A DNA stretch of 64,000 nucleotides from NCBI RefSeq assembly GCF_913055835.1, contig NZ_CAJXKQ010000008.1, positions 28,981 through 92,980 on the forward strand, in the 5' to 3' direction. The notes under the pieces were generated by a model. That model was given only the letters and a program-made list of their open reading frames with translations, searched no databases and had not been told where the DNA came from. The position numbers were made by a program, and so were the translations under genes. Shown here piece by piece: positions 52,314-57,797 of the stretch (the stretch's first letter is position 1; each line of letters starts with the position of its first letter). This stretch comes from an uncultured Marinobacter sp. GTDB lineage: Bacteria; Pseudomonadota; Gammaproteobacteria; Pseudomonadales; Oleiphilaceae.

Positions 52314-52706
52314 ATGTTTGCAGAAATTCCTTCCTACCTTCCCTGGGCGCTGACTGTGGCAGCATTGTCCCTGGTTTTCATTCAGGGCCTGGTTCTGGGT
52401 CGCCAGGTGCGAAGCCTCAGGGCGACGCTGAAAGAGCGCTGCGATACCCTTGGCCGGGAACTGCATGCCACAACCAGTGGCAGCATGGGGGTAGGGCAGC
52501 GGCTGGTCGCCTGTGAGCGCCAGTTGCACGAACTGCGGACCACGCTTGATGAAATGCGCCAGAACGATCCGCTACGAATCTCCTATGATGAAGCCTCTCG
52601 ACTGGTTGATCTCGGCGCCGATATCGACGATCTTATGAACACGTGCGGAATTTCCCGTCCCGAGGCCGAGCTGGTGTCAGCACTCAGAAAACGTCAGGCG
52701 GCCTGA
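52314..52706 (+). CDS. DUF2802 family membrane-anchored protein
   Basis: N-terminal TM, coiled coil, YDEASRLVDLGADIDDLMNTCGISRPEAELV. Confidence 0.88.
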   Translation: MFAEIPSYLPWALTVAALSLVFIQGLVLGRQVRSLRATLKERCDTLGRELHATTSGSMGVGQRLVACERQLHELRTTLDEMRQNDPLRISYDEASRLVDLGADIDDLMNTCGISRPEAELVSALRKRQAA

Positions 52707-52732: not shown

Positions 52733-55015
52733 ATGAAGAGACTTTATCCGAGGGCCCTTGAGGCCCTCCGATCTGTATCCCGCCATGATTTCGTTTCCGG
52801 TTCTGATCTGGTTCCCTCGATAACCGGCCACTCCATTCCCCGCGAAGAAACAGTCAGCCATATTCTCTCACTGCTGCCAGAGATCGAACCGGATCAGGTG
52901 GTGATGCACGTGGGTGGTGGCTCCGGGTATTTTGCCGCTGTGCTCTCGGGGCTGGCACATCGGGTGATTTACGTTGAGAGAAATGTAATTGTTGCCGAAG
53001 CGGCCAGAGAGCGGTTTTTCCGGCTCGGGATGCACAATGTCGATGTGGTGGTCGCCAATGCTGAAGACGCTCCTGCGCCTGACCCCTTATGCGATTTTGT
53101 CCTTTGTACCTCGTTCGTCAAAGAGCCTGGCAGCCTGGTTCGTCTGTTGCGCGAGGGCGGCCATCTGGTTTGCCTTGAGGGGCGCGCCGGGCCAGTGCCG
53201 AGCCTTGCCATGTTTGTGCACCGCAATGAAGGCCTGGAACGGGTGCGCACCCTCGGCTGGGTCGACTTCAACCGCAATGTGGAACAGATCCTGATTGACC
53301 AGGGTCTTGTGGATGACAAGATTCTGGCAGAGGCGAAAGCAGAGGCGGCAAAACAGAACTGCCGGCTTCTTGATGTGCTCCGGCGCAAACTGAATCTCGA
53401 GGAGATGGATCTCTACCGTTCTCTTGCGCGGCAGCGCGGCATGACCTTCACCGATGCGGACGAGATTCTGCCGGATCTCCAGCCGGCCCTGTTCCGACGA
53501 TTCTCACGCACATTCCTGGATCTTTCGAGGCTGATTCCTGTTGCCGAAGAGGATGGCAGAATCACCGTTGTCACCGATGATCCCGATGCCCGGACGGACC
53601 AGCTGGAGCGCTTGAGCCCCAACCAGGTGGTGGATTGTCTCCTGGTGACACCGACCGATTTTCGCCGTCTCTGGTCAGCGCTTGATCTGACCGCCAAGGG
53701 GCGCCGTTTTGCAGCCGATCACGAACATGGCCCGGAGCAGGAGAAGGATTCGACTGGCAGCCCGGACCAGCTGCTAGGCAAGGACCCGAACAACAAGCAT
53801 GTCAGTCCCTATCTGGTGTCGGTCTACGAGGCCATCCTGTTGGATGCGGTAAGCGAGAAAGCAAGCGACATTCATATCGAACAGTACGGTGACCGGATTC
53901 GCATCCGCCTGCGGGTGGATGGTGATCTGCACGATCTGCCGCAGTACCAGTTATCGCCCCGGGAAATTAAAGGGGTGATCAACGTGATCAAGCTACGGGC
54001 GGAATTGAACATTGCCGAGCATCGTTTGCCCCAGGGTGGCCGGTCCCGGCTTCAGCTTGGCGATATGGCTTACGATCTGCGTATCCAGACCCAACCCTCC
54101 CTGCATGGCGAGCATGCGATCATCCGGCTGCTGCCGCAAACCGGCCGGGCCATGACCATTGCCGAACTAGGCATGTCGTCGATGATTGGCGCGCGTTATC
54201 AGCGCCTGCTGGATAACCCGGCGGGGCTGGTACTTGTGGTAGGGCCGACCGGCTCCGGAAAATCCACCACCCTGTATGCCGGCCTGCAGACACTGGCCGA
54301 TGATGGGCGCCGGAAAGTGATTACGGTGGAGGACCCCATCGAGTACTCCATCGATAACATCCAGCAGACCCGGGTCCGGTCGGAAATCGGCTTCGGTTTC
54401 GCCGACGCCATGAGAGCGTTTGTCCGGGAGGATCCGGATGTGATTCTGGTGGGCGAGATCCGGGACCAGGAGACGGCACTGGAAGCGATCAGGGCTTCCC
54501 AGACCGGGCACGTGGTTCTTTCTACGCTGCACTGCAACGACGCGGTGGATTCACTCCAGCGTCTCTATGATCTGGGTATCCATCCCAACTCCATCGCCGG
54601 TGAGCTGTTGGCCGTTATTGCCCAGCGGCTGGCCAAGCGTATCTGCAAGCATTGCAGGCAGCCTGCGGAGCCGGATCCGGTGATTCTGTCCGAGGTGTTC
54701 CCGGATGGTCCGCCCGCAGATTTCCGCTGTTTTGAAGGCGCCGGCTGCGATAAATGCAGTGGTCGCGGCACCCAGGGCCGAGTGGCGATTGTCGAGTACA
54801 TGGAGGTGGATTCTGATATTCGAAATGCCATTTCCAGCCAGCCGCCCATCGGGGAACTGCGTTGGCGTGCGCTCGATGCCGGACTGGTGACCATGCGTGA
54901 CAGCGCTCTGGATCATGTGATTGAAGGCATAATCCCGCTTTCCGAACTGCCCCGGATTCTCCCAAGGGAGCGCATGGCACCAGAAGTTCGTGGCGGCCGC
55001 AGGAGTCAGCAATGA
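52733..55015 (+). CDS. GspE/PilB-family secretion/pilus ATPase with N-terminal PCMT-like methyltransferase-fold domain and degenerate MshEN-like region
   Basis: aa 1-179 resemble Pcm (ALEALRSVSRHDFV, VMHVGGGSGYFAAVLS, VIYVER, GGHLV); ATPase motifs ASDIHIE, GPTGSGKST, TVEDPIE, DPDVILVGEIRD, GHVVLSTLH, CKHC..CDKC. Confidence 0.88.
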   Translation: MKRLYPRALEALRSVSRHDFVSGSDLVPSITGHSIPREETVSHILSLLPEIEPDQVVMHVGGGSGYFAAVLSGLAHRVIYVERNVIVAEAARERFFRLGMHNVDVVVANAEDAPAPDPLCDFVLCTSFVKEPGSLVRLLREGGHLVCLEGRAGPVPSLAMFVHRNEGLERVRTLGWVDFNRNVEQILIDQGLVDDKILAEAKAEAAKQNCRLLDVLRRKLNLEEMDLYRSLARQRGMTFTDADEILPDLQPALFRRFSRTFLDLSRLIPVAEEDGRITVVTDDPDARTDQLERLSPNQVVDCLLVTPTDFRRLWSALDLTAKGRRFAADHEHGPEQEKDSTGSPDQLLGKDPNNKHVSPYLVSVYEAILLDAVSEKASDIHIEQYGDRIRIRLRVDGDLHDLPQYQLSPREIKGVINVIKLRAELNIAEHRLPQGGRSRLQLGDMAYDLRIQTQPSLHGEHAIIRLLPQTGRAMTIAELGMSSMIGARYQRLLDNPAGLVLVVGPTGSGKSTTLYAGLQTLADDGRRKVITVEDPIEYSIDNIQQTRVRSEIGFGFADAMRAFVREDPDVILVGEIRDQETALEAIRASQTGHVVLSTLHCNDAVDSLQRLYDLGIHPNSIAGELLAVIAQRLAKRICKHCRQPAEPDPVILSEVFPDGPPADFRCFEGAGCDKCSGRGTQGRVAIVEYMEVDSDIRNAISSQPPIGELRWRALDAGLVTMRDSALDHVIEGIIPLSELPRILPRERMAPEVRGGRRSQQ

Positions 55016-56115
55016 GTAACAGGCAATCTATGAACAAGGCGGCCCAGCGGGAACCGGTAGAAGTGGTCTATGCGGCTGAGCTGGACAAACTCCGGAGCAT
55101 GGATCATGGACCCGTGCCCCCCGGCTGGTTGATGTCCCCCCGTGCGGTGGAAAAGTTCGTGATGGGGGATGAGAAGCTCGGCATTGAACGAAAATTTGTT
55201 GCCGAGCGGGCCATGGTGGTCCGGATTATCATTTCCCTGTGCACCAGTCGCGGCTGCCTGCTGGTCGGGGAGCCCGGGACGGCCAAATCCTGGCTGTCGG
55301 AATTGCTGGCTGCCGGCATTTCCGGCAGCTCCACGCTGACGCTCCAGGGTGGCGCGGTGAACAGCGTCGGGCAATTGCTGTATAGCTGGAATGAGGCGGT
55401 TCTGCATACCGAGGGCCCCTGTCTGAAGGCGTTGGTGCCCAGCCCCTTGCTGCGGGGCATGATGGAAGGGCGGATGGTTCGGTTTGAAGAGATTGCCCGC
55501 TGCCCCCAGGCGCTGCAGGACGCGCTGCTCTCCGTGCTTTCCGACAGGGTGGTGGTGATTCCCGAGCTGGCGGGTGACGAGGGTGTGGTGCTTGCCCGTG
55601 AAGGCTTTAACGTCATCGCCACGTCTAACAGTATCGACGAGGGTGTGCACCGGATGAGTGCTGCCCTCAAGCGGCGTATGGACTTCGAGGAGATCCGGCC
55701 AATCCGGAACCTGGCGGACGAAATGGATGTTGTGCTCCGCGAAGTGAACAGGGCCAACAGGCGGGCAGGCATCGATGTGGAGCTTGATGAGACGGTCATC
55801 GAGATTCTGGTGACCATGTTCCACGAACTGCGCAATGGCCAGACCCTTGATGGGCGCAGTACCGATCGTCTCGCCGGCTCGGCACTGTCCACCGCGGAAG
55901 CCGTGTCGGTCGCTCACGCAGCCAGTCTCAACGCCTGGTATTACGGTGGCGGAAGTATCACGGTAGAGCAGCTGATGCACCACATCGTCGGCTCTGCCCT
56001 CAAGGACCAGCCCGAGGACCGGCGCCGGTTGCGCCACTACTTCGAAACCACGGTGGCGCCAAGACGGGGTGATAACTGGCAGCAGGCCTGGGCGTTGCGT
56101 TCACTCATCCATTGA
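55012..56115 (+). CDS. MoxR-type AAA+ ATPase, YehL-like subfamily
   Basis: YAAELDKL..PVPPGWLMSPRAV N-terminus, GEPGTAKS Walker A, VRFEE Walker B, IATSN, MSAALKRR; ATGA overlap with the upstream gene. Confidence 0.87.
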   Translation: MSNRQSMNKAAQREPVEVVYAAELDKLRSMDHGPVPPGWLMSPRAVEKFVMGDEKLGIERKFVAERAMVVRIIISLCTSRGCLLVGEPGTAKSWLSELLAAGISGSSTLTLQGGAVNSVGQLLYSWNEAVLHTEGPCLKALVPSPLLRGMMEGRMVRFEEIARCPQALQDALLSVLSDRVVVIPELAGDEGVVLAREGFNVIATSNSIDEGVHRMSAALKRRMDFEEIRPIRNLADEMDVVLREVNRANRRAGIDVELDETVIEILVTMFHELRNGQTLDGRSTDRLAGSALSTAEAVSVAHAASLNAWYYGGGSITVEQLMHHIVGSALKDQPEDRRRLRHYFETTVAPRRGDNWQQAWALRSLIH

Positions 56116-56418
56116 TTCATCCGGCGGCGTGCCGGGTTTGCGGTCCTCGGGCGTCAGCCCGCGAATATGGAAGGCAAACGCGAGGATTTCCGCAATCACC
56201 CGGTACAGCGACTCGGGAATCTCTTCGTTCAGTGACAGGCGCGCCAGAATGCTGGCCAGCTCCGCATTTTCGTAAAGAGGCACATTGTGCTCCCGGGCAA
56301 TGCGGATGATTTCTTCCGCCAGCTCGTGGGTGCCGGTGGCGCTGATGGTGGGCGCTGTCTCGCCATCGTACTTGAGGGCGACGGCGGCCCTGCTTGGCTG
56401 TTCGGTTTCTGATGTCAT
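56101..56418 (-). CDS. Stand-alone FlhB C-terminal (EscU/YscU/HrcU-like) domain protein
   Basis: Start moved to ATG 56418; AVALKYDG..AP, AEEIIRIAREHNVP, EIPESLYRVIAEILAF; no TM region or NPTH. Confidence 0.9.
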   Translation of the reverse strand: MTSETEQPSRAAVALKYDGETAPTISATGTHELAEEIIRIAREHNVPLYENAELASILARLSLNEEIPESLYRVIAEILAFAFHIRGLTPEDRKPGTPPDESMDE

Positions 56419-57797
56419 GCCCGTGTATCCACCAGTCTGTGTTCGAGTCGGGTAACGCTGCTCTGGGGCGTGCCGCGGCGGCAGTCCAGGTCCGTCACCT
56501 CCAGGCCAAGGTCGGTCAGGCTCTGTCGCAACGCGGGAAGCTCCTGGTTCACCTGGCGCAGGGTTGTCTGTTTTTCTGCCCACACCCGCGCGCTCACTGC
56601 CTGTTGTCGAAGGGCAACGTCAAAATGCAGGGGGCCAGCCTCATCCAGATCCATGGTCAGTGAAAGCCGCCACTCGGCTGTAGCGGTTTTCGCGGATCGG
56701 GTTTCCGAATCACCTTCCTGCGGGTACTGTTCGACCCGGACCTGCGCCAGCCTTGGCTCGTTCTGGGGTGTCAGCCACGGCAGATCGAGCACCAGGGTAG
56801 ACGCGGGCGCGGGGCCGGGCGCTTCGCCGCCGCCCCGAGCGGTCAGTACCTGGCTGTGCAATTGGTTGACGGTAATCCGGTTAAGCATCCCGGCCAGCAG
56901 GCGGAGCATCTGGCCCACGCTGGGCGCGTCGCCACTGCCCGGGGCCTGGGGCGTGGCCAGGGGCTGGGGAAACTGCAGTGGCGCCCGCATGAGCTCTGGC
57001 GTCGAGATGGGTGTCAGCCGGTTGAACTGTTCCGGTGTGCTGCCCTGTTGGGCGAGCAAAGCGGTGATTACCCGGCCCAGGGCCAGTTTGAGATCGGGCA
57101 ACTGGGCAGTCGGTGTCTGGGCCAGACGTGATTCGGCGAACAGGCCACTTTCCGACAGCCACTGGCGGACCTGTTGCGGTGTTGAGTCCTGGCCGCCGGA
57201 ACCGGGGAGCAGGCTCTTTCCGGAAGGCAATCTTGCCACCATCTGTTCGATAGCCTGTCTGGCGGCTTCCGGAAGTGGTTGGGGGGCCCTCGAGGAGGGC
57301 AGTTGGCCCGGGACGGGATCTTGCCGGAGACCCTGTGTCAGTGCGCCCATCAGTCTGGCTAGGCCAGCGTCCAGTGACTGCTGCCAGGGCAGGCGCTGGG
57401 CGAGGGCCCGGGCGATACCGGCTTCGGGCGCGGGCGCCAGTTTGCCCATCAGCTGGAGCTCATTGCCGGCACGCATCACCTTTACCCAGTCACCGGTCGC
57501 CAGTTCGGTCTTGCCGACGGCGGCCTGGACGAGAAGAGACTTGCCCCGGATGTCCAGTAACAGGTCCGCACTGGCGCCGCCCTGACGGTTGATGATCTCT
57601 GCCACCCGGGCCAGAGTGGTCTCCCGGTTTGTCAGCTGCAGCTGGTCGAGCAGCTGCCGCGCAGATGTCGTCACTGGCTCGCGGGCCGCTTCGGTGGTGA
57701 CGGCGGGCCGGGAGGTCTGCGGTGCAGGCTGGGTTGGCGGTGTAGGGGGCTGTTGTCCGCTGGGTAGTTTCATCGTCACTGATTTGATGTTGGACAA
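56415..57797 (-). CDS. Second FliK-like protein (C-terminal hook-length-control domain)
   Basis: Pro/Ala/Gln-rich; C-terminal WRLSLTMDLDEAGPL..LRQSLTDLGL..LVDTRA; 4-bp overlap with the FlhB-like gene; start uncertain (TTG 57797 or ATG 57773). Confidence 0.8.
   Translation of the reverse strand: MSNIKSVTMKLPSGQQPPTPPTQPAPQTSRPAVTTEAAREPVTTSARQLLDQLQLTNRETTLARVAEIINRQGGASADLLLDIRGKSLLVQAAVGKTELATGDWVKVMRAGNELQLMGKLAPAPEAGIARALAQRLPWQQSLDAGLARLMGALTQGLRQDPVPGQLPSSRAPQPLPEAARQAIEQMVARLPSGKSLLPGSGGQDSTPQQVRQWLSESGLFAESRLAQTPTAQLPDLKLALGRVITALLAQQGSTPEQFNRLTPISTPELMRAPLQFPQPLATPQAPGSGDAPSVGQMLRLLAGMLNRITVNQLHSQVLTARGGGEAPGPAPASTLVLDLPWLTPQNEPRLAQVRVEQYPQEGDSETRSAKTATAEWRLSLTMDLDEAGPLHFDVALRQQAVSARVWAEKQTTLRQVNQELPALRQSLTDLGLEVTDLDCRRGTPQSSVTRLEHRLVDTRA

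Follow-up and report, generated by a model that had tools for sequence, protein, structure and literature searches.

Two translationally coupled ATPase genes in Marinobacter

We analysed a stretch of 64,000 nucleotides from an uncultured Marinobacter sp. (assembly GCF_913055835.1, contig NZ_CAJXKQ010000008.1, positions 28,981 to 92,980; the whole stretch is called the window), which contains two adjacent ATPase genes, here termed A and B. An earlier reading of the same DNA (the original prediction) had described two ATPase open reading frames joined by an ATGA overlap; both frames and the overlap were confirmed, and the module comprises the following features.

52733-55015, forward strand: gene A, a PCMT-like methyltransferase domain followed by an MshEN/N1 domain and a PilB/GspE-type extension ATPase, 760 residues (open reading frame, Pfam, NCBIfam).
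55012-56115, forward strand: gene B, a MoxR AAA+ ATPase of the YehL subfamily, 367 residues (open reading frame, Pfam, YehL alignment).
55001-55015, forward strand: coupling signal, made up of an AGGAG ribosome-binding site inside A (55001-05) and the ATGA stop/start overlap (55012-55015).

Relatives of B were identified in 227 of 185,579 species genomes by a pattern scan. We counted pairing at 82 loci, namely the best 80 of these 227 and two that had been fetched earlier. At all of them (82/82), a PCMT-PilB gene including its PCMT part is located directly upstream of B, and the suggested co-occurrence of the two genes is thus strict. The coupling itself is also conserved: among 86 A-B junctions, 71 show a 4-bp ATGA or GTGA overlap, 10 a 1-bp overlap and 4 a 1-nt gap, with an AGGAG or GAGG motif preceding the start of B at most of them. 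This conserved translational coupling implies that A and B are produced together in a fixed manner. All-against-all clustering of neighbouring genes at 23 loci from different lineages yielded no third gene conserved with the pair. Flanking VWA, DUF5682 or pilus genes, which would have spoken against the original prediction, were not seen in any lineage. In related strains (~90% identity), transcriptome contigs connect the genes for ParP, CheW and DUF2802 with A, and extend from A across B. Their depth over the pair is below that of the che genes, and DNA carry-over may contribute to them.

A and B thus very probably form a dedicated functional pair. Together they are a self-contained two-gene module that is horizontally mobile and can be lost. 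The pair combines known families in an undescribed manner and is a real, well-delimited module; neither the A-B pair nor the PCMT-PilB fusion was described in the literature that we searched (yeh genes, DUF5682, PCMT with T2SSE, isoaspartate with PilB/GspE).

Protein A combines a PCMT-fold domain with an extension-type ATPase

Pfam locates three domains in A: PCMT (residues 7-147), MshEN (residues 248-318, 44 bits) and T2SSE (residues 362-739, E 3.9e-108). We divide the protein as follows.

52733-53272, forward strand: PCMT-fold domain, residues 1-180 (Pfam PCMT, 41.2 bits vs a cut-off of 20.3).
53273-53692, forward strand: MshEN / GSPII N1 domain with degenerate cyclic di-GMP (c-di-GMP) motifs, residues 181-320 (matches the c-di-GMP-binding domains of PilF).
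53693-53815, forward strand: linker, residues 321-361 (predicted to be disordered; mean identity 0.41; predicted local distance difference test (pLDDT) score <50).
53816-54952, forward strand: N2 domain and C-terminal domain (CTD) forming the ATPase core, residues 362-740 (Foldseek matches to GspE/PilB).
54953-55012, forward strand: conserved C-terminal extension past the PilB core, LPxERMAPE..GGRR (common to relatives without B).

A shows the hallmarks of an extension motor, as it contains an N1 domain, a four-cysteine Zn motif and a full-length alignment to PilB. The Zn motif (Cys638/641/672/675) is invariant, as are the Walker A motif (GPTGSGKST), the Asp box, the Walker B motif and the His box (23-80 sequences). 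The protein stays below equivalog level for the PilB family TIGR02538 (416 bits, cut-off 675.65, alignment over residues 183-741), and it is also below the cut-offs of the NCBIfam models for GspE (403 vs 630.25) and TfpB (350 vs 850). A is an orphan, with no cognate PilC/GspF platform gene in any neighbourhood of the pair that we inspected.

In the PCMT domain, the GxGxGY motif for S-adenosylmethionine (SAM) is retained, with G61, G63, G65 and Y66 invariant and Glu or Asp at position 82 in 80/80 sequences. Binding of SAM looks intact from these residues. The Ser in the T-I-S-x-P segment of PCMT enzymes binds the isoaspartate substrate. The corresponding segment in A reads H-S-I-P-R, where Pro36 replaces the Ser in 80/80 sequences, and isoaspartate repair by A is doubtful because this proline is invariant. 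The domain also scores below equivalog level against NF001453 (68 bits, cut-off 188). An AlphaFold2 model of A is confident in the N-terminal half, with pLDDT ~90 in the PCMT domain, and poor in the ATPase half, owing to a shallow alignment. Foldseek places the first domain with bacterial Pcm structures (template modelling scores of 0.66-0.71, normalized to the target), among them those from E. coli and V. cholerae (0.68-0.71), and the rest of A with GspE/PilB. Among solved structures, the best sequence match to the PCMT domain is chain t of PDB entry 8qby, a PCMT-like subunit of respiratory complex I from Paracoccus denitrificans and an example of a PCMT-fold protein with a structural role in a large machine.

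Protein B is a YehL-type MoxR protein

B contains an AAA_5 domain (Pfam, residues 82-223, E 6e-26). Its Walker A (GEPGTAKS) and Walker B (RFEE) motifs are both invariant, as is most of the B sequence. The nearest relative outside its clade is E. coli YehL, with 47-52% identity over the full length, in agreement with the earlier assignment of B as a YehL-type MoxR protein. The E. coli gene is part of the yehI-K-L-M-P-Q cluster, which has DUF4132, DUF5682, VWA_CoxE and SWIM genes. None of these accompanies B in the neighbour comparison of 23 loci, and DUF5682 was not found in 10/10 carrier genomes in a search in which the E. coli control did score. Foldseek searches with a model of B returned weak, generic AAA+ matches (NorQ, BchI, MCM), with NorQ being the best. 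Separately, we came across a metagenome contig (L083:10001-11623) in which the yehL gene of E. coli contains an internal duplication of ~190 codons and encodes 540 residues; this is probably an assembly artefact.

Purifying selection on the enzymatic domains of the pair

We calculated pairwise ratios of nonsynonymous to synonymous substitution rates (dN/dS) between the window's copy and eight relatives. Values of 0.01-0.02 were obtained for the ATPase core of A, 0.02-0.06 for the MshEN domain, 0.06-0.12 for the PCMT domain and 0.01-0.12 for gene B. The disordered linker of A (residues 321-361) is the sole relaxed part (0.1-0.45). All three enzymatic domains of the pair are thus under purifying selection. 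The original prediction had named elevated dN/dS as the mark of a decayed copy; with values of 0.01-0.12, the window's copy is instead under strong purifying selection.

The wider family of PCMT-PilB fusions retains c-di-GMP motifs that the B-linked clade has lost

An exhaustive search recovered fusions of the PCMT-MshEN-T2SSE type, which make up at least 25 clusters at 50% identity, with members at identities as low as ~33%. The fusion is therefore not confined to the pair but belongs to a much wider family that exists without B. By tblastn, no B was found near the distant fusions at five inspected loci. Two of these, at 48% identity, lack B; two are at 35% identity; and one, at 32%, has other, uncharacterised neighbours. 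The two fusions at 35% identity (L097:8001-12626 and L099:8001-12796, both in metagenome-assembled genomes) are followed by a gene for a lipoprotein and a SpoIID-like gene, and this order of three genes is conserved. The lipoprotein comprises 364-380 residues, is exported and contains a coiled coil, and has no assigned family or Pfam match. These operon neighbours of distant A homologues indicate a link to the envelope. We also considered the lipoprotein as a diverged MoxR protein and rejected this, given an hhalign probability of 0.7%, the lack of a Pfam match and its nature as a lipoprotein. A further group of ~1000-residue proteins (P0266, P0267, P0269, P0277 and others) contains two tandem T2SSE domains behind one MshEN domain; these had been candidates for GspE-MoxR fusions, which they are not, the second ATPase domain being another T2SSE.

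We next compared the c-di-GMP binding motifs. The MshEN consensus consists of two tandem RLGxx(L/V/I)(L/V/I)xxG(L/V/I)(L/V/I)xxxxLxxxLxxQ motifs. In A, motif I reads N-V-E..G..L..K..A, and motif II retains R, L, L, L and Q, with both Gly residues replaced by Leu. The core LGxxLLxxG is absent from 106/107 clusters of the B-linked clade, whereas 48/61 of the more distant fusions contain it at least once. The inspected fusions without B retain canonical MshEN motifs.

Distribution, transfer and loss of the pair

The pair is found in Marinobacter, Pseudomonas, Halopseudomonas, Halomonas, Alkalimonas and Wenzhouxiangella, and its neighbourhoods are wholly different among Wenzhouxiangella, Halopseudomonas, Pseudomonas and M. 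lacisalsi. In a tree of A and B, three Pseudomonas copies are nested within the Marinobacter clade (support 100), and a second clade is formed by Alkalimonas, Halomonas/Halopseudomonas, the M. lacisalsi group and Wenzhouxiangella. Obligate pairing, unrelated surroundings and the nested Pseudomonas copies together indicate that the pair moves horizontally as a unit.

Within Marinobacter, B is carried by 66/151 species genomes (60/123 among high-quality genomes). The pair lies between DUF2802 and an FlhB-like gene at ~50 Marinobacter loci. In seven Marinobacter genomes without the cassette, DUF2802 directly abuts the FlhB-like gene, leaving clean empty sites, and in a tree of the flanking genes these seven genomes occupy at least four separate positions among the carriers. 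In one of them (G023, sister to M. denitrificans) the site is a deletion scar, as the final 15 nt of B, at the same time the 3' end of the FlhB-like gene, have stayed in place. The original prediction had the cassette inserted at the end of the chemotaxis cluster. A recent insertion is not what we found: the tree of clade I for A and B broadly follows that of the flanks, and the cassette is thus old at this site and has been lost repeatedly. Marinobacter lineages that lack the che and FlhB-like genes at the locus keep the pair beside ccmA, and outside Marinobacter there is no conserved link of the pair to chemotaxis genes. Overall, we see no conserved connection to motility.

Decayed copies were also observed. 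Genome G143 has a fragmentary remnant, and gene A is split in one metagenome-assembled genome and in E. mendocina, in the latter next to an insertion sequence element. In P0103, a microhomology deletion has fused residues 48-627 of A to residues 92-367 of B, with loss of A 628-760 and B 1-91. We rejected this fusion as a natural physical linkage of the two proteins, since it is a decay product without the Walker A motif of B.

Genomic setting and resident motors

In the window the pair is preceded by genes for a ParP-like CheW protein, CheW and DUF2802 and followed by FlhB-like, FliK-like and ccmA genes. Its borders, both outside the module, are listed here.

52314-52706, forward strand: DUF2802 gene, left border of the slot (Pfam).
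56101-56583, reverse strand: FlhB-C-terminal-like gene, right border of the slot, convergent with B.

The 3' end of the FlhB-like reading frame shares 15 nt with the end of gene B, and both this overlap and the position between DUF2802 and the FlhB-like gene, as originally described, were confirmed by open reading frame and domain annotation. The longest FlhB-like frame (160 residues, 56101-56583, reverse strand) overlaps the FliK-like frame (56415-57797, reverse strand) by 169 nt; its true start is probably near 56412, because relatives have a 103-residue FlhB-like gene called at this place (L084). In Marinobacter metalliresistant (L016:3587-5722), ~2.1 kb of additional DNA separates DUF2802 from gene A, and the slot is thus also variable to the left of the cassette.

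The original prediction had further noted that the window lacks the usual partners of both ATPases. This holds for platform genes, as T2SSF domains sit on contigs C24 and C10 only in a check of the whole assembly; for DUF5682, which was not found in the whole assembly; and for secretins, the closest of which is encoded outside the window. As for VWA genes, the window contains no VWA_CoxE, and the nearest VWA_2 genes lie 4-5.5 kb past its end. We considered these VWA genes as partners of B and rejected them, since they belong to a Bat operon that encodes a separate MoxR protein of the AAA_3 type. This Bat-type operon, MoxR(AAA_3)-DUF58-DUF4381-BatA(VWA)-BatB(VWA+TPR)-BatD (G000:C8:94157-101119; L185:1658-8619, reverse strand), has its nearest end ~1.2 kb past the window and no relation to the cassette.

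The genome encodes six T2SSE ATPases, namely a GspE with its GspF, an MshE-like protein with a platform, a TfpB-type orphan, A and two PilT-like proteins. It has two platform genes, neither of them near A; all carrier genomes contain two or more T2SSF platforms. The TfpB-type orphan extension ATPase (C49:3-1547, L104) scores 891.9 bits vs a cut-off of 850 and is truncated by the contig start. No gene in the assembly, which is 94% complete, reaches the PilB equivalog cut-off, and the genus median is three platform genes vs the two found here; pilB and pilC are probably located in an assembly gap.

A tentative mechanism and its alternatives

We propose that B acts on A. B would bind A and remodel or activate it with ATP, most likely through the N-terminal PCMT/N1 region, and may thereby assume the switch role that is held in relatives by c-di-GMP binding to MshEN. 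Such a takeover is suggested by the fact that the canonical motifs have been lost exactly in the B-linked clade. The activated A hexamer would then power a type IV filament or a type II secretion system (T2SS) platform encoded elsewhere in the genome, as does TfpB in Acinetobacter; TfpB provides a precedent for a second extension motor in Acinetobacter baylyi (PMC8213720, PMC11656802). The PCMT-like domain may methylate, or sense through SAM, a component other than isoaspartate. B itself has left its usual DUF5682/VWA/SWIM partners. The whole chain, in which B activates A, replaces the c-di-GMP switch and lets A drive a pilus or secretion platform, is our preferred but tentative reading, and it may well fail at one of its steps.

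Several observations weigh against it. Known MoxR proteins work via a VWA adaptor, and none accompanies the pair. Within the genus, platform number is not related to the pair (means of 6.6 domain hits in carriers vs 6.3 in non-carriers, p=0.35). In addition, 13 intermediate clusters are without the c-di-GMP motifs, and B may or may not accompany them. Loss of the motifs and gain of B may also be one evolutionary event, in which case their correlation may rest on a single case. The frequent loss and decay of the pair fits any conditionally useful function. Finally, extension ATPases are reported to be highly specific for their own PilC (PMC11656802), and this specificity, together with the transfer of the pair between genera, favours autonomy from resident machines. 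A could thus have either of two outputs, a resident filament or T2SS platform, or autonomous action.

In the autonomous case, the PilB-like hexamer and the MoxR ring would form a cytoplasmic machine acting on cytoplasmic proteins, with the PCMT-like domain methylating substrates that are damaged or specific, as a proteostasis or stress module. This would suit a module that is self-contained and stays intact after transfer to other genera, with which no platform co-varies and in which the SAM-binding residues are conserved; moreover, roles in protein repair or as chaperones are associated with both the PCMT and the MoxR family. Threading or unfolding of substrates is not known for PilT/GspE-family ATPases, however, and the isoaspartate-binding Ser has become Pro in 80/80 sequences. 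Constraint is strongest on the N1 domain, which faces the machine, and on the Zn motif, and envelope proteins are found beside distant relatives. On balance we regard an autonomous machine as unlikely, if worth keeping in view. That the PilB-like and MoxR hexamers dock to form a platform-free, two-ring dual-ATPase machine, whose PCMT-like domains methylate a protein client, appears improbable to us. If true, ATP-driven complexes that modify or remodel proteins would gain a new class, and B would be the first MoxR protein to have another motor ATPase, not a VWA protein, as its adaptor.

The patchy distribution of the pair (66/151 species), its repeated loss and decay and its horizontal transfer are also what one would expect of an undescribed anti-phage or anti-plasmid defence system of two NTPases and a methyltransferase, and the methyltransferase part weakly matches the PADLOC model mad2 (1.3e-14). 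B has no match in PADLOC-DB 2.0, however, and A matches through its generic methyltransferase and P-loop regions only. The fold of the methyltransferase is of the protein-carboxyl type and not that of DNA methyltransferases, the pair lacks a nuclease or any other effector domain, and the neighbours are housekeeping genes rather than defence islands. Long vertical inheritance at one site and very low dN/dS also speak against it. A role in defence is quite unlikely, because there is no effector, no defence island and no PADLOC system match, and because the pair evolves very slowly.

An accessory function in the flagellar or chemotaxis apparatus, with the pair ending the che operon in Marinobacter, would explain the ~50 loci between DUF2802 and the FlhB-like gene and the transcript contigs that connect ParP, CheW and DUF2802 with A. 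It is very unlikely, since the pair stays by ccmA in Marinobacter lineages without che and FlhB-like genes there, occurs in unrelated contexts in five other genera, and has been cleanly lost from flagellated Marinobacter. The window's copy is almost certainly not a decaying, functionless remnant: such copies do occur elsewhere (G143, the split gene A of E. mendocina, the P0103 deletion fusion), but here neither reading frame is interrupted, no motif varies and dN/dS values are 0.01-0.12.

In the current view, MoxR AAA+ proteins depend on a VWA adaptor and PilB-type motors on a PilC-type platform; we describe a strictly conserved pair with neither. If the MoxR protein switches the motor on, this would be a new mode of control for type IV filament motors, and it would offer a first way into the function of the YehL subfamily, which is uncharacterised and includes the E. 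coli yeh cluster. The apparent exchange of c-di-GMP motifs for a protein partner represents a testable case of regulatory replacement.

Comparison with known systems

We compared the pair to systems in which related proteins have been described. TfpB from Acinetobacter baylyi (PMC8213720, PMC11656802) is, like A, a PilB-like extension ATPase encoded apart from a platform gene in a genome with other extension motors. A differs in its N-terminal PCMT-fold domain, in its obligate coupling to a MoxR gene and in its score of 350 bits vs the TfpB cut-off of 850. The c-di-GMP-binding ATPases MshE, PilB and PilF (PMC5013675) share the N1(MshEN)-N2-CTD layout and the Zn motif with A, whereas the B-linked clade has degenerate versions of both 24-residue motifs and an additional PCMT domain. 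Pcm/PIMT resembles the N-terminal domain of A in its fold and SAM-binding motifs, but A has a sub-equivalog score, a Pro in place of the substrate Ser, and a fusion to a motor ATPase.

B matches E. coli YehL from end to end, with the extensions at both termini included (47-52% identity), but YehL has DUF5682, VWA_CoxE and SWIM neighbours and B has none nearby. A GspE-family hexamer together with a second P-loop ring protein is also found in the FlaI-FlaH pair of the archaellum; FlaH, however, is KaiC/RecA-like rather than an AAA+ MoxR protein, and is encoded within a complete archaellum operon. NorQ/NorD, RavA/ViaA and CbbQ/CbbO likewise consist of a MoxR-class AAA+ protein and one dedicated partner gene. 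Unlike these, our pair has no evident metal-cofactor client, and the partner of B is a second hexameric ATPase.

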